Assembly: GCA_964448725.1 (NCBI GenBank)
Contig: CAYVAJ010000002.1
Span: 66,587 to 130,586 of the forward strand
Length of the DNA: 64,000 nt
Source: an uncultured Gammaproteobacteria bacterium
GTDB lineage: Bacteria; Patescibacteriota; Microgenomatia; Levybacterales; GWA1-39-11
Direction: 5' to 3'
Part shown: positions 4,378-56,297 of the stretch, one piece after another
Numbering within the stretch: position 1 is the stretch's first letter
Layout: every line of letters starts with the position of its first letter
The notes under the pieces: generated by a model
Told to the model about the DNA's origin: nothing
The model's database searches: none
What the model saw: the letters and a program-made list of their open reading frames with translations, nothing else
Position numbers and translations under genes: made by a program

Positions 4378-4451
4378 GAATGTAGTATAAAAACGTATCT
4401 TAACTCATGCATTGATTATAATCACACATAGTAATCTGATAGAATACAGGT

Positions 4452-5491: not shown

Positions 5492-5627
5492 TCAAAGATT
5501 TCAATTGATATATATCACTGCATCTTACAAATTTAGAATGTAATCTAATGTTGATATAAAATTTTTATGGTATGTATATGACAAGTAGAAACAGTTCAAT
5601 ACTCATCAAGGAAAGGAGGGAGAGTTT

Positions 5628-10088: not shown

Positions 10089-12488
10089 ATGAATCTGTCT
10101 AATAAATCCAAAACAAAATTAATTCCTGTAATCCCAATTCGAGACGGCATTGTTTTTCCTCATACAGAAAGTATTCTAACTTTTGGTCGTCCAAAAAGTT
10201 TGGCAGCACTTGAGTCAGCATTCTCTGGTGAGCGTGTTGTCTGTTTTGTTCTACAACGTAATCCTCGTCAAAATGATCCAAATCCTGAAGACCTCTATAG
10301 TATGGGTACTGTCTCACACATTGAACGCATGATTCGTTCTGACGGGGAAGTAAATGCATTAGTCCGCGGACTTACCCGTTCAAAAATTATTTCTTATGAA
10401 GATAAAGGTAACTATTTCCTTGCAGAAATTGAAGAAATAGATGAAGATGATACTGCAAATGCTGAAATTAAAGCACTTACCAATCATTTAATTAGTGAGT
10501 TTAAAAAAGCGCTCAATTATGGCAAACAAGCAGACTTTCTGGTGTTTATGAATATTATGTCTGAGATTACTGCCGGAGAACTTGCTGATCAAATTGCCTC
10601 AACACTTGATATCAAAGGAAGTGAACGTCAGGAAATTTTAGAAACAATCGATGTAAAGAAACGGCTTGAGAAAGTATCAGAATTCCTCTCAAGAGAAGTA
10701 AAGGTGCTTGAGCTCGAGCGGAAAATTGCCTCTAAAACACAAGAACAATTTGAAAAGAATGCAAAAGAAGCGATTCTGCGAGAAAGACTTAAGACAATAG
10801 AAAAAGAGCTTGGTGAATCAGATGAGGGTGGAGAAGTTCGTGAGTTACTTGACAAAATTCGCAAAGCAGGAATGCCAAAAGATGTCGAAGAAAAAGCTCG
10901 CAAAGAACTGCGTAAATTACAACAGACAACCCCATACAATCCTGAAGCAGGATATATTCGTAATTATCTTGAATGGTTAGTCGCACTGCCATGGAGTAAA
11001 AAGACAAAAAGTACTCTTGATATGAAAAAAGCAGAAGAAGTACTGAATGAGGAACATTATGGCCTTGAAAAAGTAAAAGAGCGAATTGTTGAGTATCTCG
11101 CTGTCCATAAACTGTCTGGAAAAATGAAAGGTCCGATTATCTGTTTTGTAGGGCCGCCAGGTGTAGGTAAAACATCTATTTGTAAATCAATTGCAAAATC
11201 ACTGAATCGTAAATTTGTAAAGCTCTCGCTTGGAGGTATCAGAGATGAAGCAGAGATTCGTGGACATAGACGTACGTACGTTGGTGCATTACCAGGACGA
11301 ATTATCCAGGGTATTAAAGATGCAGGCACAAAAAATCCAGTGTTCATGCTTGATGAAATCGATAAAGTTGGCAGTGACTTTAGAGGTGATCCTACGGCAG
11401 CACTTCTTGAAGCGCTTGATCCAGAACAAAACGACAAATTTGGTGATCACTATCTAGATGTAGATTTTGATCTTTCAGATGTAATGTTTATCACCACAGC
11501 TAACATGTTGGATACTATACCACCTGCGCTTCGTGACAGACTTGAGATTATTCGGTTTGCTGGATACACAGAAGATGAGAAGTTCCACATTGCTAAAAAT
11601 TTCTTAGTTAAAAAACAGCGTGAGGCACACGGTCTGAAAGCAGAAGATGTAAAAATGACTGATGATGCACTCAGATATATCATCAGACGGTATACTCGTG
11701 AAGCAGGTGTTCGAAGTCTCGAACGTGAAATTGCAGCAGTGATGCGAAAGGTAGCAAAAGGAGTTGCTGCAGGAAAGAAAGCAAAAGTAGAAGTAACACA
11801 AAGAATTGTAACTAAATATCTGGGTCCTGCAAAATTTGCTTCAACGATTGCTGAGAAGAAAAATGAAGTGGGTATTTCAACAGGACTTGCCTATACTGAG
11901 GTTGGAGGAGATATTCTCTTTATTGAGATTGCGCTCATGCCGGGTAAAGGTAGACTTACTCTTACTGGAAAACTTGGTGATGTCATGAAAGAATCAGCAC
12001 AAGCTGCACTATCTTATATCAGGTCTCGGGCAAAGAAACTTGGACTGGCAGAAGATTTCTATGACAAAATTGATATCCATATCCATGTACCTGAGGGTGC
12101 AGTACCAAAAGATGGACCATCAGCAGGAACAGCAATTACAACTGCTATTGTCTCAGCACTCACCAAAATTCCGACTAACCATTTAGTAGGTATGACAGGT
12201 GAAGTAACTCTGCGCGGACGAGTGCTTGAGATTGGTGGAGTCAAAGAAAAGGTAATTGCAGCACATCGCGCTGGACTAAAGACAATAATCATGCCAAAAG
12301 AGAACAGAAAAGATCTTGAAGATGTACCGAAAGAAGTGATTAAGGACTTACGATTTGTATTCGTTAATCATATGGATGATGTATTAAAGGTAGCACTTAC
12401 CAAACCATTACCGGGATTTAAAGAATTAAAGGGTGAAAAGGAAATGAAAAAAAATCTGACATTACTTCGACCCACTCCAGCTGAATAG
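10089..12488 (+). CDS. lon: ATP-dependent Lon protease (endopeptidase La)
   Basis: Lon N-domain; AAA+ Walker [10 protein letters not shown]; protease Ser-Lys dyad region [10 protein letters not shown]; 799 aa. Confidence 0.95.
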
Positions 12489-15397: not shown

Positions 15398-15652
15398 ATG
15401 TACTGTATGTACATTTTACAGAGAGAGGTTGATAATTCCTTTTATATAGGAAGCACGGACAATATTGATAAGAGGATTGATAAGCATAATAAAGGGTATT
15501 CAAGGTACACGAAGAGTAAAAGACCTTGGAAATTAGTGTATAACGAAATTTATAATACTCTTTCAGAGGCAAGAAAACGCGAATATTATTTAAAGTCACT
15601 TAAGAGCAGAACTGCAATAGAAAAGTTAATTAAAATTGGCCCCATCGTCTAG
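15398..15652 (+). CDS. GIY-YIG nuclease-domain protein (YhbQ/UPF0213-like)
   Basis: YILQREVDNSFYIGSTDNIDKRIDKHNKG ... YYLKSL matches the single-domain GIY-YIG family; 3' end overlaps the start of tRNA-Glu by 15 nt. Confidence 0.7.
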   Translation: MYCMYILQREVDNSFYIGSTDNIDKRIDKHNKGYSRYTKSKRPWKLVYNEIYNTLSEARKREYYLKSLKSRTAIEKLIKIGPIV

Positions 15653-15710
15653 AGGCCTAGGACATCAGGTTCTCATCCTGAAAACCGGGATTCGAATTCC
15701 CGTGGGGTCA
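15638..15710 (+). tRNA. tRNA-Glu (anticodon CUC), no encoded CCA
   Basis: hand-folded: acceptor GGCCCCA/TGGGGTC; D-stem GTCT/GGAC; anticodon stem TCAGG/CCTGA with loop TTCTCAT; T-stem CGGGA/TCCCG with loop TTCGAAT; discriminator A. Confidence 0.8.
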
Positions 15711-17160
15711 CTAAAGTTGTTTTATTGCCTGCAAAATCACCGATTAGATTGAAAGGAAGCCCTAAAGTAGCGGTTCCAAATCCTTCGTTGCTAACAGGCA
15801 TGCCACTTGGAAATAACAATGACTGGAACCTTTGTTTGTTCTCCAAATTAGACTCAAACCACAGTGATGCTACATTATCAAAGAGTGTTTCTACTAAAGA
15901 TATTAAGTGGTCTATATTTGTCTCACTCTCTCTGTAGTCTCCACGTTCAATTTCTTTTACAGTAATATTATCGTTTAATTGTTTAACCTGTGATTTATAA
16001 TCCTCATCTGAAACAATACCGTCAAGGTTTTTCTTAAGCAGTTTATCTTTCATATTTTTAAAGTGCATGATTTCTAAATCTATATTTCTAAGAGCTGTCT
16101 CTGCTTCAAGATGTTTCCTCTTCCATACATCACGTACTATTAATTGAAACAGCTTTGAGAGCTCCTGATTTGGCTGTATTGTTTTTATATACTCATAAAA
16201 TAAATTATCTAACTGCTCTTGTCTTACCCTGACAGCTCCGCATATACAATGATAGTAAGAGTATTTTAGACGTCTTCCTTTTGATTTGCTTCCTGTTAGC
16301 CTCTTCCCACAATCTGAACACGTTAGCACGCTTTTAAGTGGAAAGGTGGGATTTTTACTAAAGTGTGGTATAGCTGCTGTAACCGACTTTCCCAAACGTA
16401 TATTGTTTACTGTGTAGAATAATTCTTTACTAACTAATGGCTCGTGGGCTCCTACATGCTCTTCTCCCCACGCTTCAACTACTCCCATGTACAACTTGTT
16501 TGAAAAAATCTTTATCATTAGTTGTGGGGTTATACGTTTATTCTTCTCAGTTCTCAATCCCATCCTATTAAGTTTCTTGCTAATAGAAATGACTGAGTAT
16601 CCACCTTTGGCGTAAGTTTCAAATGCAGTCTTAATATAGGAAGCTCTAGTGTTATCAATAATTAACCCTGCAGGTGAATTTTTATAACCAATAGGAGCTT
16701 TCCAAGGCCAGTGTCCTTGTCGTGCCTTTTCTTTCATACCTTCCTTTGTCCTATCTGAACGAACATCATTGTCAAACTGTGCGATAGAAGAAAAAATGTT
16801 CTCCATTAACTTTCCCGCTGGAGTATCATCAATTTGTTCTGAAACAGACCGGAGTTTTACTCCCACTTTTAGTAATGCTGCTCTTACTGCGCTATGGTCT
16901 GCGGTATTTCTAGAGAACCTATCTAATTTATGGACTAATAAAATGTCTATCTTACCTCTATTTTCGTGACAAAATTTTAGAAGTTTTAGGAGCTGAGTTC
17001 TGTCTGCGGTTTTTGCTGACTCTCCTTGTTCTTGGAATACTTGAACAATATTCCAACCCATTCTCTCTGCGTATTCTTTACACAATTTTTCCTGGTACGT
17101 TAAGCTGTAACCCTCTATTTGTTCTTTTGTGCTGACTCTTGTGTAAAGAATGACATTCAT
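15673..17160 (-). CDS. large serine recombinase (resolvase/invertase catalytic domain, recombinase domain and zinc-ribbon)
   Basis: N-terminus MNVILYTRVSTKEQ with catalytic Ser; ...HKLDRFSRN...; C-terminal CxxC...C zinc-ribbon region; last 12 codons are antisense to the tRNA-Glu T-arm. Confidence 0.85.
   Translation of the reverse strand: MNVILYTRVSTKEQIEGYSLTYQEKLCKEYAERMGWNIVQVFQEQGESAKTADRTQLLKLLKFCHENRGKIDILLVHKLDRFSRNTADHSAVRAALLKVGVKLRSVSEQIDDTPAGKLMENIFSSIAQFDNDVRSDRTKEGMKEKARQGHWPWKAPIGYKNSPAGLIIDNTRASYIKTAFETYAKGGYSVISISKKLNRMGLRTEKNKRITPQLMIKIFSNKLYMGVVEAWGEEHVGAHEPLVSKELFYTVNNIRLGKSVTAAIPHFSKNPTFPLKSVLTCSDCGKRLTGSKSKGRRLKYSYYHCICGAVRVRQEQLDNLFYEYIKTIQPNQELSKLFQLIVRDVWKRKHLEAETALRNIDLEIMHFKNMKDKLLKKNLDGIVSDEDYKSQVKQLNDNITVKEIERGDYRESETNIDHLISLVETLFDNVASLWFESNLENKQRFQSLLFPSGMPVSNEGFGTATLGLPFNLIGDFAGNKTTLVTPREFESRFSG
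15695..15711 (+). repeat. attL-like 17-bp direct repeat (tRNA-Glu 3' end)
   Basis: exact copy of 21704-21720. Confidence 0.7.
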
Positions 17161-19404: not shown

Positions 19405-20364
19405 CTATGCCATACCCAAGTACTGCATTATTGCTGATGCAATCATTGAGCCTGCTGTATTATTTGCTACAGATATACTTCCTTTACCTATCATAATCAT
19501 GACTCTTGATATCCAACTCGTTGTAGCAGGTCCTGGTTGTTCCTCGGATTTCTCGTCCTTAGACAAAGCGTCTTCTAACTCAGTTATCAGTGCGTCTGTT
19601 ACACCCAATTCCTTAAGAGATTTTTTTAATCCATCAAAGTCCCCTGGGCGTACAACTATATTGTTCTGGGTTGTAGCACCAAAATTACCCACAGAAACGT
19701 TACCCCCGTATATTATGTTATGAACATTTTGAGTAACTTTTTTGTCAGTAGGTGGAGATACTTCAACCTCTTCTTTCCCTTTACTACCCTTAATATCTAA
19801 TTCGTCTTCTATGCTGAGAACAAATTCAAGTACCCGTGTTCTTATTGTATCCAGTATTCCTCCCAACCTAGCTTTGCTAATCACCCTCCAAGCAGAAGCG
19901 AGTACCATGCCTCCACTAAATATCTCTTTGGTTTGATAAAATGCAATAACATCTGCGGGCCAATGTGACGACAGTGTGTCTGTCTTATCTCCTTGTGAGG
20001 ATAATTCTTCCAGTTCTGCAACTGGCTCAGTCATATAGTTTGTGAATAACATTTTCCGATGCTTCTTATCTATAACTGACTGTGGTACTTGTATATTACG
20101 ATATCCACTTCCGAATGGACCTGAGAGATGGCCCATTACCTGTGCTCCAAACTCTCTATAATCAGGTAATCCATCATTAGATGTATACCCATTAAGCTCA
20201 GATTGAGACCATTTCACTAGTTCATCATTTTGCAGCAACTTTCCGAGTCTCATGCAGAGACGCAACACTTCACTCAGAGGAATGTCATGACCAGTTGAGC
20301 CATCTTTAATTTTTTTTATGAGTTCACTGACTTCACTTAAATCTACAGTTTTATTCTCTGCCAT
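19405..20364 (-). CDS. AbiTii-like abortive-infection protein
   Basis: N-terminal LSEVLRLCMRLGKLLQNDELVKWSQSELNGY matches the AbiTii N-domain signature (LRK.KVLA..L.N.E...W...ELNGY). Confidence 0.55.
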   Translation of the reverse strand: MAENKTVDLSEVSELIKKIKDGSTGHDIPLSEVLRLCMRLGKLLQNDELVKWSQSELNGYTSNDGLPDYREFGAQVMGHLSGPFGSGYRNIQVPQSVIDKKHRKMLFTNYMTEPVAELEELSSQGDKTDTLSSHWPADVIAFYQTKEIFSGGMVLASAWRVISKARLGGILDTIRTRVLEFVLSIEDELDIKGSKGKEEVEVSPPTDKKVTQNVHNIIYGGNVSVGNFGATTQNNIVVRPGDFDGLKKSLKELGVTDALITELEDALSKDEKSEEQPGPATTSWISRVMIMIGKGSISVANNTAGSMIASAIMQYLGMA

Positions 20365-26865: not shown

Positions 26866-27198
26866 ATGTCCTATTTAGACGAGATCGACGAAGGTGGCTT
26901 TAATTCTAATGCACATCGGGCAACGCATGATCGTCCGTACTTTGGACGTCTGCAAGTTCTAAACATTGCAGAAGTCCAGGTAGGGAAGGTATATCAACGT
27001 GTCTACGCTTCAGGATCCGTGATAATCGAGATCCTAGAACCGCCTTTTAAGAAAAAGAACGGTTGGTGGGTAAAGGTCAGAAATCTGACGTACCCACGCG
27101 AAGACACGATATCCTTGGAGGACGCAGGTGTCACTCCATATCAGGGTGATAATGGCCCAGTATGGAATCCTAGAAACCATCTGCTGAGGGTGGAATGA
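26866..27198 (+). CDS. hypothetical protein (first gene of the fibre/ATP-synthase operon)
   Basis: RBS GGAGG; followed by a stem-loop at 27218-27249. Confidence 0.4.
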   Translation: MSYLDEIDEGGFNSNAHRATHDRPYFGRLQVLNIAEVQVGKVYQRVYASGSVIIEILEPPFKKKNGWWVKVRNLTYPREDTISLEDAGVTPYQGDNGPVWNPRNHLLRVE

Positions 27199-27383
27199 TT
27201 TTTTCTCTTTTCATTACTCCCTGCTGGGTTTTAAAAGCTTAGCAGGGAGTCTCTATTTAGAAGTATAAATTTTCATGATCACTGAATAAAAATTTCTTGT
27301 TTTTATGTAAGTATATCTTGATTTTGATTGCAATCTGGTGAAGTAATTGGGTATGATAGAATTGGGCGATTTAACAGTTACGA

Positions 27384-30300
27384 ATGGATCCAGATTCTTT
27401 AACCAGAAGTAAAAAAACTTCATCCTTTTTAAAACTTTACGGTAAGATTGCAGCATACAGCTTGGCTGTTGTGTTTGGAATCATAACTGTAGTGTATATT
27501 ATTGATTGGAACTCAGAGTCGGAAGATCCAACAACTCCTACAAAAACAAATCCAATGCCCGAAGTTTTGGCTGAAGCAGACAGTTTATTTGAGTCAGGGG
27601 GTGTAGTATTTGGTATTCCAACAAATTTTACTGCAGCAGCAACATTTGGTTCAGACATTACCGTTGCTCAAGATACTAATCTTGAAGGGGATTTGTATTA
27701 CAGAGGAGATTTAGTTGATCTTTCAATAATTGTCGATGGATTGGAAATAGACTCAGACTCGCTTTCAACCATCCTGGATGAAGGTGTTGGAATTAGTATC
27801 ACAGGTGATGAAGTACTGCAGATAAATAATACTGGTGTACTGTCATTTAATGGCCTTACCGGTGATGTTGTCTATGAGATTGAAGAACATAATATGTTTA
27901 AAAATATTCTTGTGCCTGGTAATGCCACAATTGTAGCAGATTCAACGAATGATTCGTTAACATTTATTCCTGGTGACGGAATTTCTCTTGCGACAGATGC
28001 GACTGGTAAAAGTATCACAATAACAAGCTCAAGCGCCTCTAGTGGTGTTAATACAATTACTGGCATACCAAATCAAGTTATTGTTACAAGACTTGGTCAG
28101 GATGTTATACTCTCACTCCCTCAAGATTTTCATACAGCTGCGAGTGTTACATTTTCTGAAATGACTTTGGCAGATCCAATTACTTCTGCTAATGTACTTT
28201 CATTTACTTCAAGCGGGCGTATCTCCACATTAAATAATGCTGATTTACTCCTCGGGAGTAATAGTACTGGAAATATACAATTCATATCAAAGGGAGCCAC
28301 ATCATTGTTGCTTAATGGATCAGACTTGGTTGCAAGCGGTTCGCTTACTGGAGTCACAGATTTTAGTGCCTCAGGTGAGATAGAACTTACATCACTTGCT
28401 AATGGAATTGTGCAAGCGCAAGGATATACATTAACCAGTGGACCTATCAATCTTGCAAGCAGTAACCACGTATCAGGAATTTTATCCGCAGAAAATGGCG
28501 GAACTGGTACTGATAAGACACCATTGGATGGACAAATATTAATTGGTAGCGGTCACACAAAAAGTTATGAACCGAGACATTTAAGTGTGGGTACTGGTAT
28601 TTCTGTAACAAGAAACCCCTATTCGTTAACTCTTACAAATAGCGGAGTAACAAAAATTGCTGGAGGAGTGAGGCATATTTTGGTGAATGGATCATATTCA
28701 CCAACAGGACTGACAGGTGATGTTACATTAACATTACCCCAGATACTTGATACTGTAGCCTCACCAACATTTGCAGCGTTGCGGCTCACCTCACATGAAG
28801 ATATTCTTACCTTTACTGCAGAATCAGGAGATTTAGCCTATCTCCAGATAGGTGAGCTTACACAGAATAGGAATTACACTCTCCCAGATGAATCAGGTAC
28901 TTTTTGTCTTACTTCAGGTAACTGTGTTGGAATTGGTGGAGGGCTTGTCGGAACCGGTACTGCCAACTATATTCCTAAATACTCAAATGCAAATACACTT
29001 ACGCCATCACTCATTTATGATGATGGATCAAGTGTGGGAGTTGGAACAACGCTCCCTTTGCTGGGAGTAGCACTTGATGTGAATGGTTCTCTTCGCATTG
29101 GAGTTGCAAGAGGCACATATGACATTTTGAACACTGTACCTGCACAGGGAGATCCATTGGCTTCATTATTCTGGGGAGATAGAACACTCTGTGATTCTAG
29201 TGGGAGTTGTCAGGGGACAGCAGGTGCAGGAGTTGAGAGCATGGGGACAGATGGATATATTGCTCTTTTTTCTAACAGCGGGAATACTCTCGCGAACTCT
29301 CTTATCTATGATTCAGGATCTGCTGTTGGGATTGGGACAACTACACTCACAGGATTTATTACGATTTCAGGAAGTAGTGAAAATTCAGCACTCTCCATCA
29401 ATCAGACGAACTCAGTAGGGGATATTATCAGTGCGTCAATTGAAGGGGAAGAGAAGATGATTCTAACCAGTGTCGGTGATCTGGATTTGGTGAGTGGGGT
29501 ATATAAAAATAAAGGAAATTCAGGTGCAACAGTAGGAGGATATTCTTGTGTAACAACAAGTGGTGGTATTGTTACCGGAAGCGGAGCATGTCCTGTAGAT
29601 CCATCTGCTACGTTGTGGGAATCACAAGGAAGTCTTACCTTTGCAAAAAATACGAATCATAATTTTGCACTTGGTGGTACAACCGTAAATAATGCAAAGT
29701 TCGCAGTATTAAATATAGATTCTGGTGATCCGACTATTTGGTTGAGAAGTTCTCCTACCCAAACTTTGTCAATTACCTCAAGCGGTACTTTTAAAACAAT
29801 TAACGATGCAAATATTACACTCGAATCAGGTGAAGATATTGTACTCAAACCAGGCAGTGGCGATATTGTTGTAGAAGGTAAATTAGTAACTCCAGAAAGC
29901 TCAGATTTGATAGTGGAACCTGAAGGGTCATTTCATGTTAGACCTCACGGACAGCAGGTATTGAGTGTTTCAACAGATGGAGTGGGAGTTAATACTACAA
30001 TTTCGCGTGGGGCATTTACTATAAAAGAACTGTCAAGTTTCCCAACACAAGGAGAAGGGGAGGGAACTCCTGATAATAATTTGATTTTAGATCCTGCAGA
30101 CAGTAATTTCTCATCTAATACTGGACATTGGACCTTATGGTCTGGATGGTCGATTAGTGGAGGAAGATTAACATATAGCGGAGGTATTGCTACTGCATCT
30201 TTAGAAAACCAATATATAGGCAATTATATTGAAGCCGGTAAAACCTATACAGTGAAATTTGATTTATTGGAAACAACTTCTCCAGGGGCGATTGGTATCC

Positions 30301-32168
30301 AAGTTGGGAATGCACAAAGTGGTATGATTTGGGCAGATATGCCTCCATATGATTATGGGACAAAAACATCTGTTATTACTCCCACATCGTCTGGAAATTT
30401 ACATATATATGCAAATAATGGATGGCAAGGCTCAATTACAAATATAAGAATAACTTCCCCAGGTATAGAGCCACCTCCATCTACCCCACCTTCACCAGAT
30501 CCATCAGGACCAGGTCTTGTGCTTGTTAGTAGCGATGGTGCCTTAACCCCACTTGAGATGAGAGCAGGAGGAAGCGGACTATCCAACACATTTGTAGGAT
30601 ACTCTGTAGGTGGATTAAATGAATCAGGAACACATAATGCAGGGTTTGGGGCAGAAGCGCTCTATAGTTTATCACTAGGAGATTACAACACTGCTATTGG
30701 ATCTGAGGCGTTATATAACAATCTCTCAGGTTTGGACAATGTTGCATTAGGATATAAATCAGGATACCACTTAAGTGGTGGATCTGGAAATGTATTTGTT
30801 GGCTCAAATGCAGGGCCATCAAGTTCTGCTGAATTATCTAATCAATTATATATTGCAAATGCTGCAGGAAATCCTCTTATTTGGGGAGATTTCAGTGAAA
30901 AAATGGTGGGAATAAATCTTGCAGATACTACATCTGCAAATAATACGTTAAGTGTTGCTGGTAGTTTGTGTGTAACTGCAACGGGAGTATGTGAAAATAA
31001 TTCTGATGGAACGATTTATACCACCAACACGGTAGTAACAGGGGCAGATGTTGCAGAAAATTATGTGTCTGCTCAGCAGTTACATCCTGGAGATGTCGTG
31101 AGTATGGCTAACAATGGTAATTCTCAAGCAGTAGTAAAAGCACATGCTGCATCCAATACTTTGCTTGGTGTCGTTTCAACAGCTCCTGGTCTCACACTTA
31201 ATTCTGATGCGAGAACAGATAAGGTACATAAATATATATACCCAATCGCTTTAAATGGAAGAGTTCCGACAAACGTAAGTACAGAAAATGGGTTAATTTC
31301 AGTAGGTGACCCGCTTACCGTTGGCTCTACTCCAGGAGTAGCAGTAAAAGCAATAAACTCGGGATATATTATTGGACGTGCACTTGAATCATATTCTGGA
31401 TCAGGGACTGGTACGATAATAGTATATGCTAATGCAGGTTGGTACGCACCGTTGATTGTAAATGGTGATGGAAATATCGTCTCTGATTCTGAACTTGTGA
31501 TGAATACAAATAATGAGTTTTCTCTATTATCTATAAAGGGTCTACCTTCAACAGATGATACATATGAGGAATCACTACAGACTTTGGATGCAAAGATTTC
31601 AGGACTTGAAAAAAAAATCCAAGAGCTTGAAAAAAGTCTGAATCTAATCGAAGAGATTAAAAATTCTGATACAATGCCTCGATCTAAAGAAAGCAGTGAA
31701 TTATTGGATGGATTAGGTGAAATTTCTCTAGAATCTGCTTCTATTGCAGGTTCGTTAAGAGTAGAAGCACTGTATCTTGATGGAAATGGGAGTATTAGTA
31801 CACAAGATACTCCGCTTCGGCTTCAAGCAAATAGTACTCACAATATTGTGATGTTTGATGGAAGTATCATATTTGCTGCAAACGGTGATATTTCAACTTC
31901 AGGTACAGTCAAAGCAAAAAAAATTGACATTGATACAAGTGATGAAGAAGCAGCTTCAATCGGAGTTGGTACAATAAAAGAAGGTGAAAAATCAGTTACC
32001 GTCAACACAAAAGCAGTGACTGAAAAATCAAATATATTTATTACACCAAAGACGTTATTTCCCGGGATGATCGCGGTAACAGAACAGACAGAGAATGAGT
32101 CATTTAAAGTTGAAATAGAAAAAGATGCGACAAAAGATATTCTGTTTAACTGGTGGATAGTAAATTAA
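27384..32168 (+). CDS. giant N-terminally membrane-anchored surface fibre protein (1594 aa) with tail-fibre-like repeats
   Basis: single N-terminal TM (AAYSLAVVFGIITVVYII); long Thr/Ser/Gly/Asn-rich beta-type repeats; Pro-rich linker PPPSTPPSPDPSGPG; NTAIG/NVALG-type tail-fibre repeats; coiled-coil segment; C-terminal domain paralogous to the N-domain of the next gene. Confidence 0.7.
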   Translation: MDPDSLTRSKKTSSFLKLYGKIAAYSLAVVFGIITVVYIIDWNSESEDPTTPTKTNPMPEVLAEADSLFESGGVVFGIPTNFTAAATFGSDITVAQDTNLEGDLYYRGDLVDLSIIVDGLEIDSDSLSTILDEGVGISITGDEVLQINNTGVLSFNGLTGDVVYEIEEHNMFKNILVPGNATIVADSTNDSLTFIPGDGISLATDATGKSITITSSSASSGVNTITGIPNQVIVTRLGQDVILSLPQDFHTAASVTFSEMTLADPITSANVLSFTSSGRISTLNNADLLLGSNSTGNIQFISKGATSLLLNGSDLVASGSLTGVTDFSASGEIELTSLANGIVQAQGYTLTSGPINLASSNHVSGILSAENGGTGTDKTPLDGQILIGSGHTKSYEPRHLSVGTGISVTRNPYSLTLTNSGVTKIAGGVRHILVNGSYSPTGLTGDVTLTLPQILDTVASPTFAALRLTSHEDILTFTAESGDLAYLQIGELTQNRNYTLPDESGTFCLTSGNCVGIGGGLVGTGTANYIPKYSNANTLTPSLIYDDGSSVGVGTTLPLLGVALDVNGSLRIGVARGTYDILNTVPAQGDPLASLFWGDRTLCDSSGSCQGTAGAGVESMGTDGYIALFSNSGNTLANSLIYDSGSAVGIGTTTLTGFITISGSSENSALSINQTNSVGDIISASIEGEEKMILTSVGDLDLVSGVYKNKGNSGATVGGYSCVTTSGGIVTGSGACPVDPSATLWESQGSLTFAKNTNHNFALGGTTVNNAKFAVLNIDSGDPTIWLRSSPTQTLSITSSGTFKTINDANITLESGEDIVLKPGSGDIVVEGKLVTPESSDLIVEPEGSFHVRPHGQQVLSVSTDGVGVNTTISRGAFTIKELSSFPTQGEGEGTPDNNLILDPADSNFSSNTGHWTLWSGWSISGGRLTYSGGIATASLENQYIGNYIEAGKTYTVKFDLLETTSPGAIGIQVGNAQSGMIWADMPPYDYGTKTSVITPTSSGNLHIYANNGWQGSITNIRITSPGIEPPPSTPPSPDPSGPGLVLVSSDGALTPLEMRAGGSGLSNTFVGYSVGGLNESGTHNAGFGAEALYSLSLGDYNTAIGSEALYNNLSGLDNVALGYKSGYHLSGGSGNVFVGSNAGPSSSAELSNQLYIANAAGNPLIWGDFSEKMVGINLADTTSANNTLSVAGSLCVTATGVCENNSDGTIYTTNTVVTGADVAENYVSAQQLHPGDVVSMANNGNSQAVVKAHAASNTLLGVVSTAPGLTLNSDARTDKVHKYIYPIALNGRVPTNVSTENGLISVGDPLTVGSTPGVAVKAINSGYIIGRALESYSGSGTGTIIVYANAGWYAPLIVNGDGNIVSDSELVMNTNNEFSLLSIKGLPSTDDTYEESLQTLDAKISGLEKKIQELEKSLNLIEEIKNSDTMPRSKESSELLDGLGEISLESASIAGSLRVEALYLDGNGSISTQDTPLRLQANSTHNIVMFDGSIIFAANGDISTSGTVKAKKIDIDTSDEEAASIGVGTIKEGEKSVTVNTKAVTEKSNIFITPKTLFPGMIAVTEQTENESFKVEIEKDATKDILFNWWIVN

Positions 32169-32169
32169 T

Positions 32170-32976
32170 ATGAACATGACCTGCCTAATCAAAAAAATTG
32201 TATCAACAAAAAATATTCTTTGTCTCACCGCACTGATACTTCTCAGTATGTCGATGTTTACAATACCAACGCTCGCAACAGTCTCCTATGGAATTGCTAA
32301 CCGTATTACCATAGACGATACCAATGTAAGAACAGGGAGTATTGTTTCATCACGTGGAACAGGGGGATTTATTTTAAGCAGCATTCCCTATGACCCTTCG
32401 ATTGTTGGTGTTGTTACGGATAATCCGGCAATTTTAATTCATCTCAGTAATGCACAAGGAGAATATCCGGTTGTCTCAACTGGAAATGCGATGGTAACAG
32501 TATCACTTGAGAATGGATCAATTAAAAAGGGGGACCCTATTACCACTTCTTCTGTAAAAGGGGTGGGAATGAAGGCGACAAAATCAGGGTATGTAGTAGG
32601 TAATGCAACGCAAGATTTTTCTGGTAACAATCCTAACGAGATGCGGGCAATAAATGTAGCAGTCAATATCCGTTATCAGAATCCTAAAATTGATGTTCAA
32701 TCAAAACTTTCTGATATTGCCAATTTATCTGCGGCTGCAGTTTCAGAAGAACCATTAACCGTTTTTAAGTATGTAGTAGCTGGATTTATTATTATCCTCT
32801 CTTTTATTATTGGTTTTTTGACATTTGGAAGAATAGCAGCACGAGGAGTGGATGCGTTAGGAAGAAATCCTTTAGCCATTAAGAGAATTGGATTTGGAAT
32901 CGCGCTTAATGTTATCATAACAGTAGGCATCATTATCTCAGGAATCGGTATTTCTGTTTTCATTTTAAGAATATAG
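32170..32976 (+). CDS. fusion protein: signal peptide, then an extracellular domain, then a C-terminal ATP-synthase c-subunit-like helical hairpin lacking the conserved carboxylate
   Basis: C-terminal 70 aa VVAGFIIILSFIIGFLTFGRIAARGVDALGRNPLAIKRIGFGIALNVIITVGIIISGIGISVFILRI has the c-subunit topology and the R-N-P polar loop, but Asn where the ion-binding Glu/Asp should be; sits in the c-subunit position of the operon. Confidence 0.55.
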   Translation: MNMTCLIKKIVSTKNILCLTALILLSMSMFTIPTLATVSYGIANRITIDDTNVRTGSIVSSRGTGGFILSSIPYDPSIVGVVTDNPAILIHLSNAQGEYPVVSTGNAMVTVSLENGSIKKGDPITTSSVKGVGMKATKSGYVVGNATQDFSGNNPNEMRAINVAVNIRYQNPKIDVQSKLSDIANLSAAAVSEEPLTVFKYVVAGFIIILSFIIGFLTFGRIAARGVDALGRNPLAIKRIGFGIALNVIITVGIIISGIGISVFILRI

Positions 32977-32977
32977 T

Positions 32978-33667
32978 ATGGAACTTATTGTGCTTTTAAT
33001 TACATTAGTCATTACTGCAGGTTTTATTGCTCTCTTCGTTTTTTGGCGCAAACTTAAAATAAAAGAGAAAAGAATTCAAAGAATTGAGTCTAGACTTCAT
33101 CGCCATTCTGTAAAAACAATGGAACAAGTACATCAAAACTCTGAACAGATTCTCCGCGAGTCATTGAGTAAAGCTTCAGATATTATCAAAGATACGAAAA
33201 CGGTGAAAGAAGAAAATGAGAAAAAGCTCGAGGAAGTCTTACAACAGACTGCAAAGCAACATGTAGATATTTTAGAACAGCAGTTGGGGGAAATTTCAGA
33301 TACGTTCGGTGCAGAGTTTGAGAATCTTGAAAAATTGTATGAAAAACAGGCTAAAAAAACATTGTCTAAGATGGAGTCTACTGGAAAAGTTGGATTGGAA
33401 AAATTGGAAAAGGTTTTAGACAAACAAACAGTTTCATTGCAAAATTATCTTAAGCTGAAAGTAGATTCTGAGTTTGAGAAAGCACAACGTGAGATTGATA
33501 ACTACAAAAGGGCTGAATTGAAAAAAGTAGATAAATCAATTCAAGAATTAGTTAAAAAAACTGTTTCTGAAGTGATTGGAAAAAGTATTCCAATGAGTGA
33601 GCATGAAAAGCTCATTATTGCAGCTCTAGATGAAGCAAAACTCGAAGGTATGTTTAATCATGAATAA
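32978..33667 (+). CDS. atpF: F-type ATP synthase subunit b-like (single TM plus long coiled coil)
   Basis: N-terminal TM then about 200 aa of charged coiled coil; position in the operon. Confidence 0.6.
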   Translation: MELIVLLITLVITAGFIALFVFWRKLKIKEKRIQRIESRLHRHSVKTMEQVHQNSEQILRESLSKASDIIKDTKTVKEENEKKLEEVLQQTAKQHVDILEQQLGEISDTFGAEFENLEKLYEKQAKKTLSKMESTGKVGLEKLEKVLDKQTVSLQNYLKLKVDSEFEKAQREIDNYKRAELKKVDKSIQELVKKTVSEVIGKSIPMSEHEKLIIAALDEAKLEGMFNHE

Positions 33668-34127
33668 AGAGGCTTATATCGAAATACTAAAAAATATATA
33701 TACAAAAAAACAAGCTGACACATTTGTTGCAAATATAGATACGCTTATCGCATCTCTTTACAGTAAGGGAAGAACTCTCAATAAAATACAAGCAACTTTT
33801 TCATTGGAGCTCAGTGAGGAAATTATTGAGGTGATGAGAAAAGAAAAAATCTCGTTCAATGATAATGATGCTTGTAAAAAATTTTTTGAATCATTACGAA
33901 AGATCGTATTGGATATACCTACAATTGATCTCACAATTTCGTTTGATCCAACGCTTTCACAAGTCCAGAAAATTTGCCACTGGATTATCAACAATAAAAA
34001 AGAAAAGCATCTTTTACATATAATTGTTGATCCAGGAATAATCGGGGGTGTACAGATAGGATTGGACGGTCGGTACAAAGATAAATCACTGAAAGCTAAG
34101 CTTGGAGATATGACAATTTCCCTATGA
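33660..34127 (+). CDS. atpH: F-type ATP synthase subunit delta (OSCP)
   Basis: C-terminal ...IVDPGIIGGVQIGLDGRYKDKSLKAKL; start chosen at ATG 33660, which overlaps the atpF stop (ATGAATAA); the track ORF starts at 33630. Confidence 0.6.
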   Translation: MNKEAYIEILKNIYTKKQADTFVANIDTLIASLYSKGRTLNKIQATFSLELSEEIIEVMRKEKISFNDNDACKKFFESLRKIVLDIPTIDLTISFDPTLSQVQKICHWIINNKKEKHLLHIIVDPGIIGGVQIGLDGRYKDKSLKAKLGDMTISL

Positions 34128-35596
34128 ACAATTTTTCTCAATATTTGGAAACAACAGGAGAGTATGGTGTGGTTAAGGAGTTGAAGTCTTCGATTGTAAA
34201 GGCTTCAGGTATTCCCAAAGCAAAACTCCATGAATTGGTACTTTTTGAGTCAGGCAAAATGGGACAGGTTTTTTCAGCCAGTCGGGATATTGTCGAGGTT
34301 CTCACGTTCTCAAAAGAGCCAGTAGCAATCGGTGAGAGATTTGTACGAACTAATAGGATGATTTCTGTGCCAGTAGGGGAAAGTCTGCTTGGTACAATTA
34401 TTGATCCTCTAGGATTACCTTTCCCAAACGTAAAAAACTTTAAGAGACCCAAAGAGATGCGTGAGATTTTTGTTGAAGCGCAAAAAATTGATGTACGTGA
34501 GGCAATCAATAAACCTCTTTTGACGGGTGTGAATATTGTTGATTTGTTGGTTCCTTTAGGTATGGGACAAAAAGAGCTTGTTATTGGTGACAGAAAAACC
34601 GGAAAAACTGCGTTCGTGCAAACTACGATGGTTAACCAAATAAAAAATAACAATTGTATTGTTATTTATGCAGGAGTTGCAAGAAAAACTCATGAGATAA
34701 AAAGACTTCATAACTACCTTCTCACTGAGAAGATAATGGATAAAGTGATAATTGTAGCCTCTGATTCTCAGGATTCACCTAGTCTCATTTATTTAACTCC
34801 ATACACTGCAATGACGATTGCTGAGTATTTTCGTGATCAAGGACAGGATGTCTTATTGATTTTGGACGATTTATCTACTCATGCAAAATTTTATCGCGAA
34901 GTTTCTCTCGTGGGTAAAAGATTTCCAGGAAGAGACTCATATCCAGGTGACATTTTTTATGTACATGCTCGACTTTTAGAAAGGACAGGAAACTTTACGC
35001 ATGCAAAAAAAGGGGCTGTTTCAATATCCTGTCTGCCGATAGTCGAGATAGTGGAGGGCGATTTGGCATCGTATATCGCGACTAATATTATGGGTATGAC
35101 AGACGGACATATACTCTTTGATAGCGGTGCATTTCATGATGGAAGACGTCCTGCTATCACTCCCTCTCTCTCTGTGACGAGGGTAGGAAAACAAGCACAA
35201 TCAAAACTCAGGCGTGAGATTACTCAGACCTTAACTGCGTTTTTAGCAGAATATGAAAAAATGCAAAATTATTCCTACTTTGGAGCGGAGCTTTCGGATA
35301 AAGTAAAAGATTTATTAACTACCGGTGATAAAATGTACCGCTTATTTAACCAATCATATAGGCTCATCGTACCTGAAAAAGTGCAGACTATCTTATTTAT
35401 GCTTACGTGGATGAAAGCATTTAATACGTACACCAATGATCAAATTGAGACAGCAATCACAAATCTTTCACACGTTGCAGAGGAAGGTAAATTAGATCAG
35501 CTTTTTAATGCATTAGAGAAAGTAGAGACACTTAAAGAACTTGAGAAATTAGTTGAGATGAATAAAAGTAAAATTCTCAAATTATGCAAAGTTTAA
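34124..35596 (+). CDS. atpA: F1 ATP synthase subunit alpha
   Basis: P-loop GDRKTGKTA; alpha-type N-terminal beta-barrel and nucleotide-binding domain. Confidence 0.85.
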   Translation: MNNFSQYLETTGEYGVVKELKSSIVKASGIPKAKLHELVLFESGKMGQVFSASRDIVEVLTFSKEPVAIGERFVRTNRMISVPVGESLLGTIIDPLGLPFPNVKNFKRPKEMREIFVEAQKIDVREAINKPLLTGVNIVDLLVPLGMGQKELVIGDRKTGKTAFVQTTMVNQIKNNNCIVIYAGVARKTHEIKRLHNYLLTEKIMDKVIIVASDSQDSPSLIYLTPYTAMTIAEYFRDQGQDVLLILDDLSTHAKFYREVSLVGKRFPGRDSYPGDIFYVHARLLERTGNFTHAKKGAVSISCLPIVEIVEGDLASYIATNIMGMTDGHILFDSGAFHDGRRPAITPSLSVTRVGKQAQSKLRREITQTLTAFLAEYEKMQNYSYFGAELSDKVKDLLTTGDKMYRLFNQSYRLIVPEKVQTILFMLTWMKAFNTYTNDQIETAITNLSHVAEEGKLDQLFNALEKVETLKELEKLVEMNKSKILKLCKV

Positions 35597-36495
35597 AAGA
35601 ACTACGTGAAAATATTGCAGCTGTGGGAACTATGGGAATGGTTGTTCAAGCTATGCAGGAAATCTCAGTTATGAAGATGCAAAAAGAGAGAAATGGTGTG
35701 GTGCAGACCCGTTTTTTACTCGATCGATTAACAGATGTTTTTTATGATGTTAAAACAAATTATAGAAAAAAGATATTACGAATTGTCAGGAAAAAAAATA
35801 AAGATCTTGAAGAACATTCTTCTTTTGTTAAAAACGGAAAATCTGCTGCTGTTTTTCTTTCATCAAATGGAAAGCTTCAAGGAGATATTATTGCCAAAGT
35901 TTATAAATACTATGCAGAGTCGATCAAAAATAAAACAGATGATATTTTTATTGTGGGTAAGGTAGGAAAGGCGATGTATGAAAGTAGCGGATCTAAAAAA
36001 CCGATCCAATACTTTGAAATTCCTGATAGTGATGTGAAAATTGATGACTTAAAAGAGTTAGTATTGAGCTTGATCAACTATCAGAAAGTCGATGTATATT
36101 ATGGAAAATTTGAGAGTATTGTTACTCAAAACCCTACTGTTTCAAATGTTTCAGGGCATAAAACAGAAGATAATATTCAGAACTTACTATACAAAGATGT
36201 TGAGGAAAAAGATAAAAATGGAAAAGAAAAAGATGATTATAAACACTTTCTTTTTGAGCCATCACTTGAAAATATTTTGCAGTTTTTTGAAACACAGGTA
36301 TTTGCCTCTCTATTTAAACAAACAGTAAGTGAGGCACAACTTGCGCGCTATGGGTCACGAATACGTTCTATGGGTGAGGCAATTGGACATATTGAGGGCG
36401 AAAAGAAAAATTTATTAAGCAAAGAAAGGAGGACCAAGCAGATGATCAATAATAAGAAACAGTTAGAAAGGCTATCAGGGGTCATGCTTTGGTAA
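35584..36495 (+). CDS. atpG: F1 ATP synthase subunit gamma
   Basis: N-terminus MQSLKELRENIAAVGTMGMVVQAMQ... matches the gamma N-terminal helix; position between alpha and beta. Confidence 0.7.
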   Translation: MQSLKELRENIAAVGTMGMVVQAMQEISVMKMQKERNGVVQTRFLLDRLTDVFYDVKTNYRKKILRIVRKKNKDLEEHSSFVKNGKSAAVFLSSNGKLQGDIIAKVYKYYAESIKNKTDDIFIVGKVGKAMYESSGSKKPIQYFEIPDSDVKIDDLKELVLSLINYQKVDVYYGKFESIVTQNPTVSNVSGHKTEDNIQNLLYKDVEEKDKNGKEKDDYKHFLFEPSLENILQFFETQVFASLFKQTVSEAQLARYGSRIRSMGEAIGHIEGEKKNLLSKERRTKQMINNKKQLERLSGVMLW

Positions 36496-37881
<1,386 letters not shown>

Positions 37882-37884
37882 CAT

Positions 37885-38268
37885 ATGGAAGAAAATAAGC
37901 CAGTTACAAAACAGAGCACACCTCCTCGTGAAGAATTGGCAGTCAATATTGTGAGTGCTGATGAAAATGTATTTGATGGGACTGTATACATGCTTACATC
38001 AAAAAACAATGAAGGAGAGTTTGATGTATTACCCCTCCATACAAATTTTATTACCTTGATTGAGGAAAAAATAATCTTACACAAAACTTCAAAAGAGAAG
38101 AAGGAAATACCGATAACTAATGGGGTACTCAAAGTAGCAGAAAATCAGGTGAGTATTATCTTAGGACCGTTTGTCGGTGCAGACCTATTACCAGAAGACA
38201 TACTTCAATCGTCAACACGTTCAGTAGGTTCAAAAATAGATAAGATTAAAAAACTGTTTGTTGACTAA
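37885..38268 (+). CDS. atpC: F1 ATP synthase subunit epsilon
   Basis: N-terminal beta-sandwich pattern LAVNIVSADENVFDGTVYMLTSKNNEGEFDVLPLH. Confidence 0.75.
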   Translation: MEENKPVTKQSTPPREELAVNIVSADENVFDGTVYMLTSKNNEGEFDVLPLHTNFITLIEEKIILHKTSKEKKEIPITNGVLKVAENQVSIILGPFVGADLLPEDILQSSTRSVGSKIDKIKKLFVD

Positions 38269-38297: not shown

Positions 38298-38336
38298 AAA
38301 GAAAAGGTGTGAACTTAAACCACCTGGGAGGTGGAA
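38298..38336 (+). promoter_or_regulatory. conserved upstream motif, copy 2: AAAGAAAAGGTGTGAACTTAAACCACCTGGGAGGTGGAA, 58 nt upstream of a TATAAT
   Basis: matches 26563-26601 at 37 of 39 positions; TATAAT at 38394-38399. Confidence 0.6.
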
Positions 38337-45291: not shown

Positions 45292-47157
45292 TTAAGGGTT
45301 TATAGGCAGGCTGAAATAGAATGTTGATCCTTTCCCTTTTTTACTTGTTAACCATATTTTTCCTCCGTGTCTTTCAACAATATCTTTTGATATGAATAAC
45401 CCTAATCCAAGACCTGGAAATGTTTTCTCAGTGGGGTCTGATACTTGGTAAAGGCGATCAAATATTTTAGTCTGCTTTTCTTTTGCAATGCCAATTCCAT
45501 AATCTTTGATACCTACAATTACCTGACTATCATTTTTTTCCAGTGTGATTTTGATTTTTTTATTGTTAGGAGAATACTTAATAGCATTAGTTATAAGATT
45601 AACAAGTACTTGATACACTCGATACCTATCTGCTGATACAAAAATCTTTTTTCTATCTTGTATAAGTAGGGTATGGTTTGTTGTTGCCTGTAATCCTTCT
45701 ACTGTATCTTGCACTAATTCATGTAAATCGAAGAGCTCTTTATGAAGCTGTAATTTTCCTGTTTCAATACGTGAAACATCAAGGAGATCATTTGTGAGTT
45801 CTGTTAAACGATATGTCTGATCTTTAATTCTTTTCGTAAAGTATAATGGTTTCTCTTGTTTTTCTTTCTGTAATTCTTTGTACAAAAGGTCTACGAACAT
45901 TTTCATACTCGTAATTGGTGTCTTGAGTTCGTGTGAAGCCATACTTAAGAAATCACTTTTTTCTTGTTCAAGTTGCTTGTGCTGTGTAATATCAGTTGTT
46001 GCTCCAAGCATCCTTGTTGGTTTTCCATTTTTGTCATACGTAACGACTGCTTGGGTTTCGACCCAGCGTACGGTTCCACTTGGAGGAACAATTCTAAACT
46101 CAATATAAAATTGGGTTTTATTTTGTAAACTTTTTTCTATTTCTTGTAAAACTCTTGCTCTATCATCAGGATGAATAAGTTGCTTAAAATTATCGAATGT
46201 TACGATAAAATCTTTTTTACTGACATCATGAATGGTATATACATTATCTGTCCATGTTAATGTATTGTTATCTATTTCCCAATCCCAAACTCCAATTTTA
46301 CCTGCATCAAGCGCTATTTTTAGTCGTTCCTCGTTTTGTCGAATTAATTCTTCTGACTTTTTCTGATTCGTTATATCGCGTGCTATTTTTGAGGCTCCAA
46401 TGATTGCGCCATTTTTTCCTTTTATGGGGGATATACTGAGCGAAACATCTATTAATTGTTTGTGTTTCGTTATTCGTACGGTATGAAAATGATGTATTCG
46501 TTTTCCTTTTTTTAATTTATTAATAATATCTTCTTCTTCTTTTCTCCGCTCAGGTGGAATGATAAGTGTGATTTTTTCCCCAAGTGCTTCTTTGGCTGTA
46601 TACCCAAATAATTTTTCAGCACTTTTATTCCAGCTAGTAATATTTCCATCTAAAGTTTTACTGATAATTGCATCATCAGATGACGCAACGATTGCTGCGA
46701 GTCGGGCATTGATTTCATCTGCTTCCATTCGTTCAGTTATGTCTTCGTGTTGAAGTACGACATATGCAAGATTTCTTTTTTGATCACGGATAGGATACAT
46801 ATGTCCAGAAATCCAGCGGTATGGGACCTGTCCATTTATTTGCACTGTTTTAGAAGGATCATATCGGATAGGGGGAAGATAAACAATTTTTCCGTTAAAT
46901 CCACGTTTTATATAGTGCATTGATCCAGATGCAATTAATTGCTTGTCTTTGAGAATATTATATGACCCTACGTGCTTGTATTTAACATTCCACAGTTTTT
47001 CCCATGCTTTATTGACAAAAATTATTTCTCCGTCTGGGGTAAAAATTTGAGTACTTATCGGATTTTGATCAAAAATGGTTTTAAAAAGCTTGATTCCTCC
47101 CTCTTCGATGGTCAGATTTATCATAATAAACCAATAAAGTATACCATAGATATACAA
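45292..47157 (-). CDS. multi-PAS sensor histidine kinase (cytoplasmic)
   Basis: H-box HELKTPITSMKMF; HATPase_c (GLGLGLFISKDIVERHGGKIWLTS); three PAS-like repeats. Confidence 0.85.
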   Translation of the reverse strand: MYIYGILYWFIMINLTIEEGGIKLFKTIFDQNPISTQIFTPDGEIIFVNKAWEKLWNVKYKHVGSYNILKDKQLIASGSMHYIKRGFNGKIVYLPPIRYDPSKTVQINGQVPYRWISGHMYPIRDQKRNLAYVVLQHEDITERMEADEINARLAAIVASSDDAIISKTLDGNITSWNKSAEKLFGYTAKEALGEKITLIIPPERRKEEEDIINKLKKGKRIHHFHTVRITKHKQLIDVSLSISPIKGKNGAIIGASKIARDITNQKKSEELIRQNEERLKIALDAGKIGVWDWEIDNNTLTWTDNVYTIHDVSKKDFIVTFDNFKQLIHPDDRARVLQEIEKSLQNKTQFYIEFRIVPPSGTVRWVETQAVVTYDKNGKPTRMLGATTDITQHKQLEQEKSDFLSMASHELKTPITSMKMFVDLLYKELQKEKQEKPLYFTKRIKDQTYRLTELTNDLLDVSRIETGKLQLHKELFDLHELVQDTVEGLQATTNHTLLIQDRKKIFVSADRYRVYQVLVNLITNAIKYSPNNKKIKITLEKNDSQVIVGIKDYGIGIAKEKQTKIFDRLYQVSDPTEKTFPGLGLGLFISKDIVERHGGKIWLTSKKGKGSTFYFSLPINP

Positions 47158-52652: not shown

Positions 52653-52653
52653 T

Positions 52654-56295: not shown

Positions 56296-56297
56296 AT

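Follow-up and report, generated by a model that had tools for sequence, protein, structure and literature searches.

An attached life on other cells is assumed for Patescibacteria, and little is known about the mechanism by which they hold on to them. The gene described here lies on a 64,000-nucleotide stretch of contig CAYVAJ010000002.1 (assembly GCA_964448725.1; the whole stretch, with a G+C content of about 36%, is called the window in the following) and encodes a giant, predicted cell-surface fibre, which resembles phage tail fibres in its build but has a membrane anchor. Its C-terminal part contains a domain that is homologous in sequence and predicted fold to domain D4 of gp12, the tail spike of phage phi29. 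D4 represents the MEROPS/Pfam family Peptidase_G2 (PF11962), which is described as 'IMC autoproteolytic cleavage domain'. According to a bioRxiv preprint (10.1101/216911), which cites Xiang et al. 2009, the D4 region of gp12 is an autochaperone, and its removal leads to non-productive trimer assembly. In the tail spike Dpo31 of a marine podovirus, the D4 domain begins at Asp664 and is systematically absent from the expressed protein (PMC13317679). For Saccharibacteria, it has been reported that adhesins are required for epibiotic growth (PMC10633639).

The fibre protein and gp12 (PDB 3gqh and 3suc) share the homologous domain with a D-x-x-E motif at its N-terminal edge. In both proteins, this domain directly follows a fibrous, presumably trimeric passenger, and the same role can be expected for it, namely trimer nucleation followed by self-cleavage. 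In contrast to gp12, whose passenger is located on the virion, the passenger of the fibre protein is held on the cell membrane by an N-terminal helix. Furthermore, gp12 lacks the coiled coil and the beta-sandwich (about 230 amino acids, aa) that follow the D4-like domain here. Dpo31 (PDB 28nb) also has a domain of the D4 type with an Asp as its first residue, and the systematic absence of this domain from the expressed protein is consistent with cleavage. As a depolymerase of the virion, however, Dpo31 has a catalytic beta-helix domain, of which no counterpart was detected in the fibre protein. The logic of a C-terminal self-cleaving trimerisation chaperone is also realized in tail fibres and 'tail fiber domain-containing proteins' with Peptidase_S74 (PF13884), an endosialidase-type intramolecular chaperone domain found in the relatives P0007, P0008, P0013, P0016, and P0018, which carry the repeats of the fibre protein. 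The chaperone described here, however, is of the G2/D4 type, which is unrelated to S74, and the Pfam search yielded no PF13884 match; what the fibre protein has in common with S74 proteins is confined to the region of the repeats and the neck. Trimeric autotransporter adhesins are similar with respect to N-x-A-x-G turn repeats, coiled-coil segments, and the concept of a trimeric fibre adhesin. They possess a C-terminal outer-membrane beta-barrel, whereas the fibre protein has an N-terminal helix, a soluble beta-sandwich at its C-terminus, and no match to a YadA-family entry in Pfam. Giant surface proteins of other bacteria with small genomes or a host-dependent life, such as the adhesins of Saccharibacteria, are likewise large, envelope-anchored extracellular proteins with a plausible role in attachment, here from a Patescibacteria-type genome. 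In the literature available to the search, neither a description of a G2-type chaperone cassette for surface proteins of this type nor a prior description of G2/D4 chaperones in proteins from Patescibacteria was found. The cassette varies a known mechanism, the G2-type intramolecular chaperone, and does not amount to a different kind of system.

The D4-like domain and the C-terminal cassette

The complete open reading frame (ORF) of the fibre gene (27384..32168, + strand) encodes 1594 aa followed by a stop codon. An orthologue of 1629 aa (P0002, 56% identity) is colinear with the fibre protein from the MDPD start to the last residue, and a second orthologue, which is truncated by the end of its contig (P0003, 62% identity), is colinear as well. 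Because of the end-to-end colinearity with P0002, a frameshift or an assembly chimera is very unlikely, and the giant protein proposed in an initial annotation of the window is encoded by a single, unbroken frame. Searches of Pfam, NCBIfam, and PHROGs with the whole protein and with seven segments of it gave nothing above threshold, and the whole protein, used as a single sequence against the PDB, produced only spurious coiled-coil and PPR matches.

The D4-like domain, a beta-tulip autochaperone domain in phi29 gp12, comprises aa 1222-1362 (31047..31469, +) and was recognized by profile searches, hhalign, and structure prediction with AlphaFold followed by Foldseek. A profile derived from an alignment of 40 sequences of this domain (A2) matched the released C-terminal fragment of gp12 (PDB 3gqh, E 6.7e-8), full-length gp12 (6qz9, E 1e-7), the 'pre-mature' gp12 (3suc, E 1.5e-6), and the D4 chaperone of Dpo31 (28nb, E 3.9e-6), and hhalign of the domain family against gp12 gave a probability of 96%. 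With a smaller profile of four sequences, the matches to gp12 were only marginal (E 0.08). In an AlphaFold model of aa 1024-1594, the predicted local distance difference test (pLDDT) is above 90 at aa 1223-1358 and 1523-1593. The best Foldseek matches of this model in the PDB were 3suc (E 1.4e-5) and 3gqh_A (E 1.6e-4, template modelling score (TM) 0.57); capsid decoration proteins with a beta-tulip ranked next, and the matches in BFVD include a 'preneck appendage protein' at E 1e-13. The homologues P0022, P0024, P0026, P0032, P0038, and P0104 exceed the Pfam cut-off for PF11962 across the D-x-x-E motif.

Downstream of this domain, AlphaFold predicted a heptad coiled-coil helix with regular 3-4 hydrophobic spacing at aa 1394-1427 (31563..31664, +). 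The amphipathic coiled coil of the initial annotation, whose quoted string lies at aa 1398-1425, is thus present, but it belongs to the C-terminal cassette and not to the shaft of the fibre. The linker holding this helix is poorly conserved, with 18-32% identity to the orthologue. The protein closes with a beta domain (aa 1443-1594; 31710..32165, +) that ends with FNWWIVN and whose last approximately 70 aa are similar to PF24146 (K1-lyase_C), the C-terminal domain of the Klebsiella phage K1 lyase. The corresponding region of the fibre protein (aa ~1524-1578) scores 21.1-25.0 bits against PF24146, for which the gathering cut-off is 27; P0023 scores 29.2 bits, and an E-value of 1e-3 or lower was reached by 6 of 31 aligned members. 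The C-terminal NWWIVN was also considered as a sorting signal, which was rejected; these residues are the final strand of a beta-sandwich that is predicted with confidence.

To define the cassette, an alignment (A1) was made from the last approximately 395 residues of the fibre protein, P0004 (2204 aa), and P0006 (2631 aa), whose shafts are unrelated. The A1 profile matched 24,566 proteins among 1.84 billion cluster representatives at E<=1e-3, with 2,049 of them at E<=1e-30, and the best 150 matches are 361 to 5727 aa long. A set of 271 retrieved proteins was analysed, 145 of which hold both the first and the last cassette domain. In 137 of these 145 proteins, the end of the cassette lies at most 10 residues from the C-terminus. 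The terminal heptapeptide of cassette proteins has the pattern (F/V)(N/D)WW(I/V)(I/V)N. The recovered species-representative loci are mostly from Patescibacteria, comprising Levy-, Roizman-, and Gottesmanbacteria, Saccharibacteria, Peregrinibacteria, and Moranbacteria, and all relatives with a phylum-level name are Patescibacteria except for one metagenome-assembled genome (MAG) that is labelled as Nanoarchaeia (L021). In isolated phage genomes, 14 matching records were found, none of which covers 80% of the cassette, and only the D4-like part is matched. The cassette, led by a chaperone of the phage self-cleaving type, defines a very large and unannotated class of giant surface proteins, mostly in Patescibacteria. 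The combination of A-D-x-A-E with the heptapeptide at the C-terminus provides a sequence handle for finding such proteins and for trimming them to their predicted host-facing mature parts. Several GTDB representative MAGs with the cassette bear other names, namely 'uncultured Gammaproteobacteria bacterium' for L004, L011, L012, L017, L029, and L030 and 'Lysobacterales' for L006; in our judgement, these titles look like placeholders or wrong taxonomy and are unreliable, given the phylum-level names of the other relatives.

The self-cleavage site of phi29 gp12 aligns with the sequence A-D-V-A-E of the fibre protein (aa 1221-1225; 31044..31058, +), and Asp1222 falls on the first residue of 3gqh, the fragment released from gp12. 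At this motif, gp12 has NTWS-DFAEYF, while the pre-mature form 3suc has DFAQYF with the Glu replaced. A-D-x-A-E is invariant at the start of the domain in alignment A1; in alignment A2, the Asp is invariant and the Glu is conserved to at least 90%. Across the giant proteins, 199 full copies of the domain were compared, and D-x-x-E is kept in 196 of them. Both residues have been lost in paralogues from a family of small neighbouring proteins (described below), which have a signal peptide and no passenger and show Y-G-I-A-N and variants at this position. Because the loss concerns paralogues without a passenger to release, the Asp/Glu pair appears to be kept for cleavage and not for folding. Based on these sequence comparisons, cleavage between Ala1221 and Asp1222 is predicted with moderate confidence. 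The coiled coil and everything else after aa 1221 would then probably be a disposable assembly module and not a part of the mature fibre.

The cassette suggests a concrete assembly mechanism with a precise predicted cut. The protein would be exported in an N-in/C-out orientation and would stay in the membrane through the one helix at its N-terminus (aa 22-40). After translocation of their C-termini, three neighbouring chains could associate via the cassette, which would set the register, and the fibre would fold from the tip toward the membrane. By means of the conserved Asp/Glu pair, the D4-like domain would then cut the bond from Ala1221 to Asp1222, whereby a fragment of approximately 40 kDa would be freed and a tip consisting of the repeats and the neck would be exposed. 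The mature passenger (aa 41-1221) would comprise a beta-rich shaft, a jelly roll similar to carbohydrate-binding modules (CBMs), a proline hinge, five turn repeats, and the neck. Equipped with the CBM-like domain, the mature fibre would attach to a glycan of a partner cell or surface. Taken as a whole, an anchored fibre with a self-cleaving, D4-led cassette and a glycan-binding mature part is the best explanation for the gene and is, on balance, probably correct.

Several points weigh against this explanation. The fibre protein itself has no PF11962 match at E<=1, and because it is below the Pfam threshold, the G2/D4 assignment rests on the family profile and on the predicted fold. In phi29, D4 is the last domain, whereas 232 residues come after it here. 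The residue before the cut is Ala, as in most of the family, and not Ser as in phi29. Release of D4 in phi29 reportedly needs ATP, and an ATP-dependent release of this kind is implausible outside the cell, where ATP is not expected. Two D4-like copies are present in 18 relatives, 17 of which keep D-x-x-E in both; because tandem copies both retain the motif, it may also be structural. Finally, the proposed ligand binding depends on a model of moderate confidence with Foldseek E-values of only ~1e-3 to 1e-2, and monomer modelling gave neither the trimeric state nor the fold of the shaft.

Some of these points lead to an alternative in which the fibre is the same but the cassette is retained. In this case, the D4-like domain, the coiled coil, and the beta-sandwich would form a distal knob that contacts the target, and D-x-x-E would be structural. 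A knob would account for the approximately 230 aa beyond the D4-like domain with their well-folded terminal beta-sandwich, and it would agree with the similarity of the end domain to C-terminal domains of tail spikes (K1-lyase_C and the Pam1 tail spike, PDB 7eea), with the tandem D4-like copies carrying the motif, and with the lack of extracellular ATP for a phi29-style release. A receptor-binding tip is expected to be variable, however, whereas both the D4-like domain and the final beta domain rank among the most conserved regions of the protein (64-76% compared with the orthologue) and are nearly unchanged across proteins with unrelated shafts. Retention also does not fit with an Asp/Glu pair that is nearly universal in the giant proteins and yet lost where the passenger is absent, and both characterised D4 domains are cleaved off (3gqh; PMC13317679). 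A retained knob is considered unlikely for these reasons, and removal of the cassette by self-cleavage is the preferred reading.

Membrane anchor and passenger

The initial annotation had proposed a cytoplasmic tail of about 20 aa followed by a single transmembrane segment, and this arrangement agrees with the present analysis. The predicted cytoplasmic tail (aa 1-21; 27384..27446, +) contains five Lys or Arg residues, and P0002 and P0003 likewise begin with its first residues, MDPD. It is followed by the predicted transmembrane signal anchor (aa 22-40; 27447..27503, +), which is the only strongly hydrophobic 19-mer of the protein (Kyte-Doolittle value 2.46; the next best elsewhere has 1.29). 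An equivalent hydrophobic segment was read by eye from the sequences of P0002-P0006, and a strong hydrophobic 19-mer is located within the first 250 residues of 55 of 78 complete large relatives. On reading the sequence, no small-x-small signal-peptidase site was found after aa 22-40. According to its hydropathy and its conservation in relatives, the segment is predicted to be an uncleaved signal anchor in N-in/C-out orientation. The fibre protein has four closely spaced Cys pairs, which fit a protein with the predicted extracellular location. The earlier view of a giant, N-terminally anchored, and predicted extracellular protein with modules common to phage tail fibres and tail spikes is thereby supported, and adhesion is a reasonable candidate role. 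In P0005 (1307 aa, from a metagenome contig in ENA), which is a relative of the shaft, the membrane helix is preceded by a cytoplasmic helix-turn-helix domain of the MerR/excisionase type. P0005 thus links a DNA-binding domain to a giant fibre outside the cell and may function as a one-component surface-to-DNA signalling protein.

The largest part of the passenger is a beta-rich shaft (aa 41-914; 27504..30125, +) with three of the Cys pairs (508/514, 603/609, and 722/736), which is rich in Ser, Thr, Gly, and Asn. For the complete protein, residue counts gave 11.9% Ser, 11.6% Gly, 10.2% Thr, and 6.7% Asn, amounting to 40% for the four residues; the initial annotation had noted the richness in these residues for the extracellular region. 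The shaft is a mosaic of modules, each of which is common to a different subset of other giant proteins, and a word-based homologue search with the shaft found 7 proteins only. An AlphaFold monomer model of aa 41-1023, calculated with 7 sequences, had a mean pLDDT of 36.7 with values below 50 for aa 41-914, and only the last approximately 110 residues of this model were used.

These residues form a predicted jelly roll (aa ~915-1025; 30126..30458, +) with a pLDDT of 53-74. Its top Foldseek matches are almost all CBMs (E 2e-3 to 3e-2, TM 0.44-0.56), including porphyran-binding and hyaluronan-binding modules as well as CBM16/4/6/29. A sequence-family match was not obtained for the jelly roll, which belongs to the less conserved parts of the protein (about 40% identity). 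Based on the model, it is the best candidate for a ligand-binding part, although the indication is weak.

The jelly roll is followed by the proline hinge described in the initial annotation, i.e. the proline-rich linker PPPSTPPSPDPSGPG, which was located in the sequence at aa 1030-1044 (30471..30515, +). Further downstream, five repeats of 17-18 residues with the pattern N-x-[A/F]-x-G span aa 1067-1152 (30582..30839, +) and resemble the turn repeats of tail fibres and YadA heads; AlphaFold predicts one short strand per 17 residues across them. The string that had been cited before as phage-tail-fibre-like corresponds to aa 1102-1144 and is part of these repeats. The likeness is borne out by matches of the repeats to tail-fibre-type proteins (E 1e-22 to 1e-4), several of which have Peptidase_S74, and to PHROG 4636 'tail spike' (E 1.2e-5). 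The repeats are followed by a conserved neck with the sequence LYIANAAGNPLIWGDFSEKMVGIN (aa 1155-1178; 30846..30917, +). The same LYIAN...GDF neck occurs in P0008, a tail-fibre-like relative with Peptidase_S74.

The Ser/Thr-rich composition of the fibre can be set beside genes for PMT_2, YfhO/PTPS-related, and polysaccharide biosynthesis or flippase proteins, which are located at 51144-57746 in the window, i.e. 19-25 kb downstream of the fibre gene. At the locus of the orthologue P0002 (L001), genes for PMT_2, YfhO, MptA_B, GT2, and GT87 proteins are found at 1-5783, at most 10 kb upstream of the orthologue. It is pure speculation that these membrane glycosyltransferase-type genes could serve to glycosylate the fibre.

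Gene neighbourhood and expression

Only 1 nucleotide past the stop codon of the fibre gene, a gene for a protein of 268 aa begins (32170..32976, +), which is the first of an atpF-H-A-G-D-C array. In the 268-aa protein, a signal peptide is followed by a D4-like domain that lacks D-x-x-E and by two C-terminal membrane helices with a GRNPLA loop. Its D4-like domain is homologous to that of the fibre protein (hhalign 99.4%, E 1.7e-21). The best PDB match of its helical hairpin is subunit c of ATP synthase, which is not significant (E 0.42), and the position of the ion-binding Glu is occupied by Thr or Ile in the hairpin family. The protein was also tested as a candidate for ATP synthase subunit a and was rejected. 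Proteins of this small family have 215-273 aa with an invariant GRNPLA loop and are annotated as hypothetical; members are encoded in L001 (14898-15689), L006 (3686-4333), L024 (15182-16003, -), and L027 (4834-5640). The small gene heads an ATPase array in the window, in L001, in the distant L006, and in L024, and the order of fibre gene, small gene, and ATPase genes is conserved in L001 and L006. In L024, the fibre-type and ATPase units are 7 kb apart, and in L027 the small gene lies between two giant genes. None of these ATPase arrays, including the one in the window, contains a gene for subunit a or c.

Eight genes, i.e. those for the fibre, the small protein, and subunits b, delta, alpha, gamma, beta, and epsilon, are packed 1 nucleotide apart or overlapping at 27384-38268, and the only terminator-like hairpin of the array is located at 38320-38334. 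Given this arrangement, a common transcript of the giant gene and the ATPase genes is possible. It can further be asked whether the fibre, the small D4-like and c-like protein, and the F1-type ATPase constitute one apparatus, either a membrane dock or an ATP-driven surface machine. The fibre would then dock on, or be assembled or moved by, an ATPase-linked membrane ring, and its gene would be the first cistron of an 11-kb unit. A loose comparison is offered by the gliding of Mycoplasma mobile, in which an F1-like ATPase drives giant leg proteins. The dense packing without a terminator-like site before 38320-38334, the conserved gene order, the vicinity of small and giant genes in L024 and L027, and the homology of the two D4-like domains are in agreement with a common apparatus. 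On the other hand, ATPase genes are missing from the vicinity of P0004 and from most other loci, the similarity to subunit c is weak, canonical subunits a and c could be encoded elsewhere in the genome, and the synteny may simply be inherited. A joint apparatus is thus very unlikely; if it existed, it would represent a novel type of surface machinery coupled to ATP in Patescibacteria. The odd ATP synthase operon may merit study by itself.

The other neighbours of the fibre gene encode a glyoxalase, a hydrolase, a protein similar to nucleoside deoxyribosyltransferases (weak match), histidine kinases, and Lon, and no phage structural genes were found among the genes of the window. The surroundings are cellular and do not represent a prophage. 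A virion protein, i.e. a tail fibre or tail spike of a phage or prophage, would explain the phage counterparts of the repeats, neck, D4-like domain, and K1-lyase_C-like end, but this origin is hardly credible given the membrane anchor in the place of an N-terminal virion-attachment domain, the housekeeping neighbours, the synteny with ATP synthase genes that is kept in an orthologue with 56% identity, and the absence of the whole cassette from isolated phages.

The region upstream of the fibre gene contains a hairpin with a 16-bp stem and a weak T-tail (27216..27250, +), which confirms the stem-loop seen in the initial annotation. It is located 18 nucleotides past the stop codon of a 110-aa ORF (26866..27198). 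Between the hairpin and the ATG of the fibre gene, there is a promoter-like element (27328..27362, +) consisting of TTGCAA and TATGAT with a spacing of 18 nucleotides (TTGCAA-18-TATGATAGAAT), which overlaps an extended -10 sequence, TGnTAGAAT. The leader would have a length of about 15-25 nucleotides without a Shine-Dalgarno sequence. The orthologue in L001 has TTGCAT-18-TATGATAGGAT at the same place, although its upstream neighbour is a divergent lon gene, and the element common to both genes is TTGCA(A/T)-18-TATGATAG(A/G)AT despite the different upstream genes. Because of its distance of 18 nucleotides from the preceding stop codon and its position upstream of the conserved promoter-like element, the hairpin reads as a terminator of the upstream gene. 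Most likely, it terminates the 110-aa ORF and is not part of the fibre transcript, which would start from a dedicated promoter downstream. The regulated attenuator suggested in the initial annotation draws on the stability of the 16-bp hairpin 134 nucleotides upstream of the ATG, but it is unsupported and highly improbable in view of the hairpin's position directly after the stop codon of the upstream gene, the orthologue-conserved promoter-like element that follows it, the lack of a visible alternative pairing or leader peptide, a fold z-score of only -2.45, and the lack of an Rfam family match at the hairpin.

The missing ribosome-binding site that had been pointed out for the fibre gene is real in so far as no Shine-Dalgarno core precedes the ATG, but it does not distinguish this gene, as such a core is present in only 15 of the 63 ORFs of the window. 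The scarcity of these sequences, the G+C content of the window, its cellular genes, and the taxa in which the cassette occurs suggest a Patescibacteria-type and probably ultra-small host. Many genes of the window have a TATAAT-like box about 7-20 nucleotides before the ATG and no Shine-Dalgarno sequence, for example those at 4452, 19405-20364 (-), 39979, and 49132, which suggests that very short or leaderless mRNAs are widespread in the window. The sequence TAGAATTGGG occurs in exactly the same form before the fibre gene (27357) and before the gene at 39979 (39960).

Some further features lie outside the fibre locus. A tRNA-Glu gene (15638-15711) shares its 3' end with a gene for a large serine recombinase (15673-17160, -), and the G+C content is raised to 0.41-0.42 at 12-16 kb. 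The lon gene (10089-12488), which is directly adjacent to the fibre gene in the orthologous locus, is 15 kb away from it in the window, and the region at 12.5-27.4 kb may hold an integrated element or a rearrangement. Three histidine kinases with PAS domains are encoded within the 64 kb (310-2253 (-), 3316-4377 (-), and 45292-47157 (-)), which is a high number for a supposedly reduced genome.

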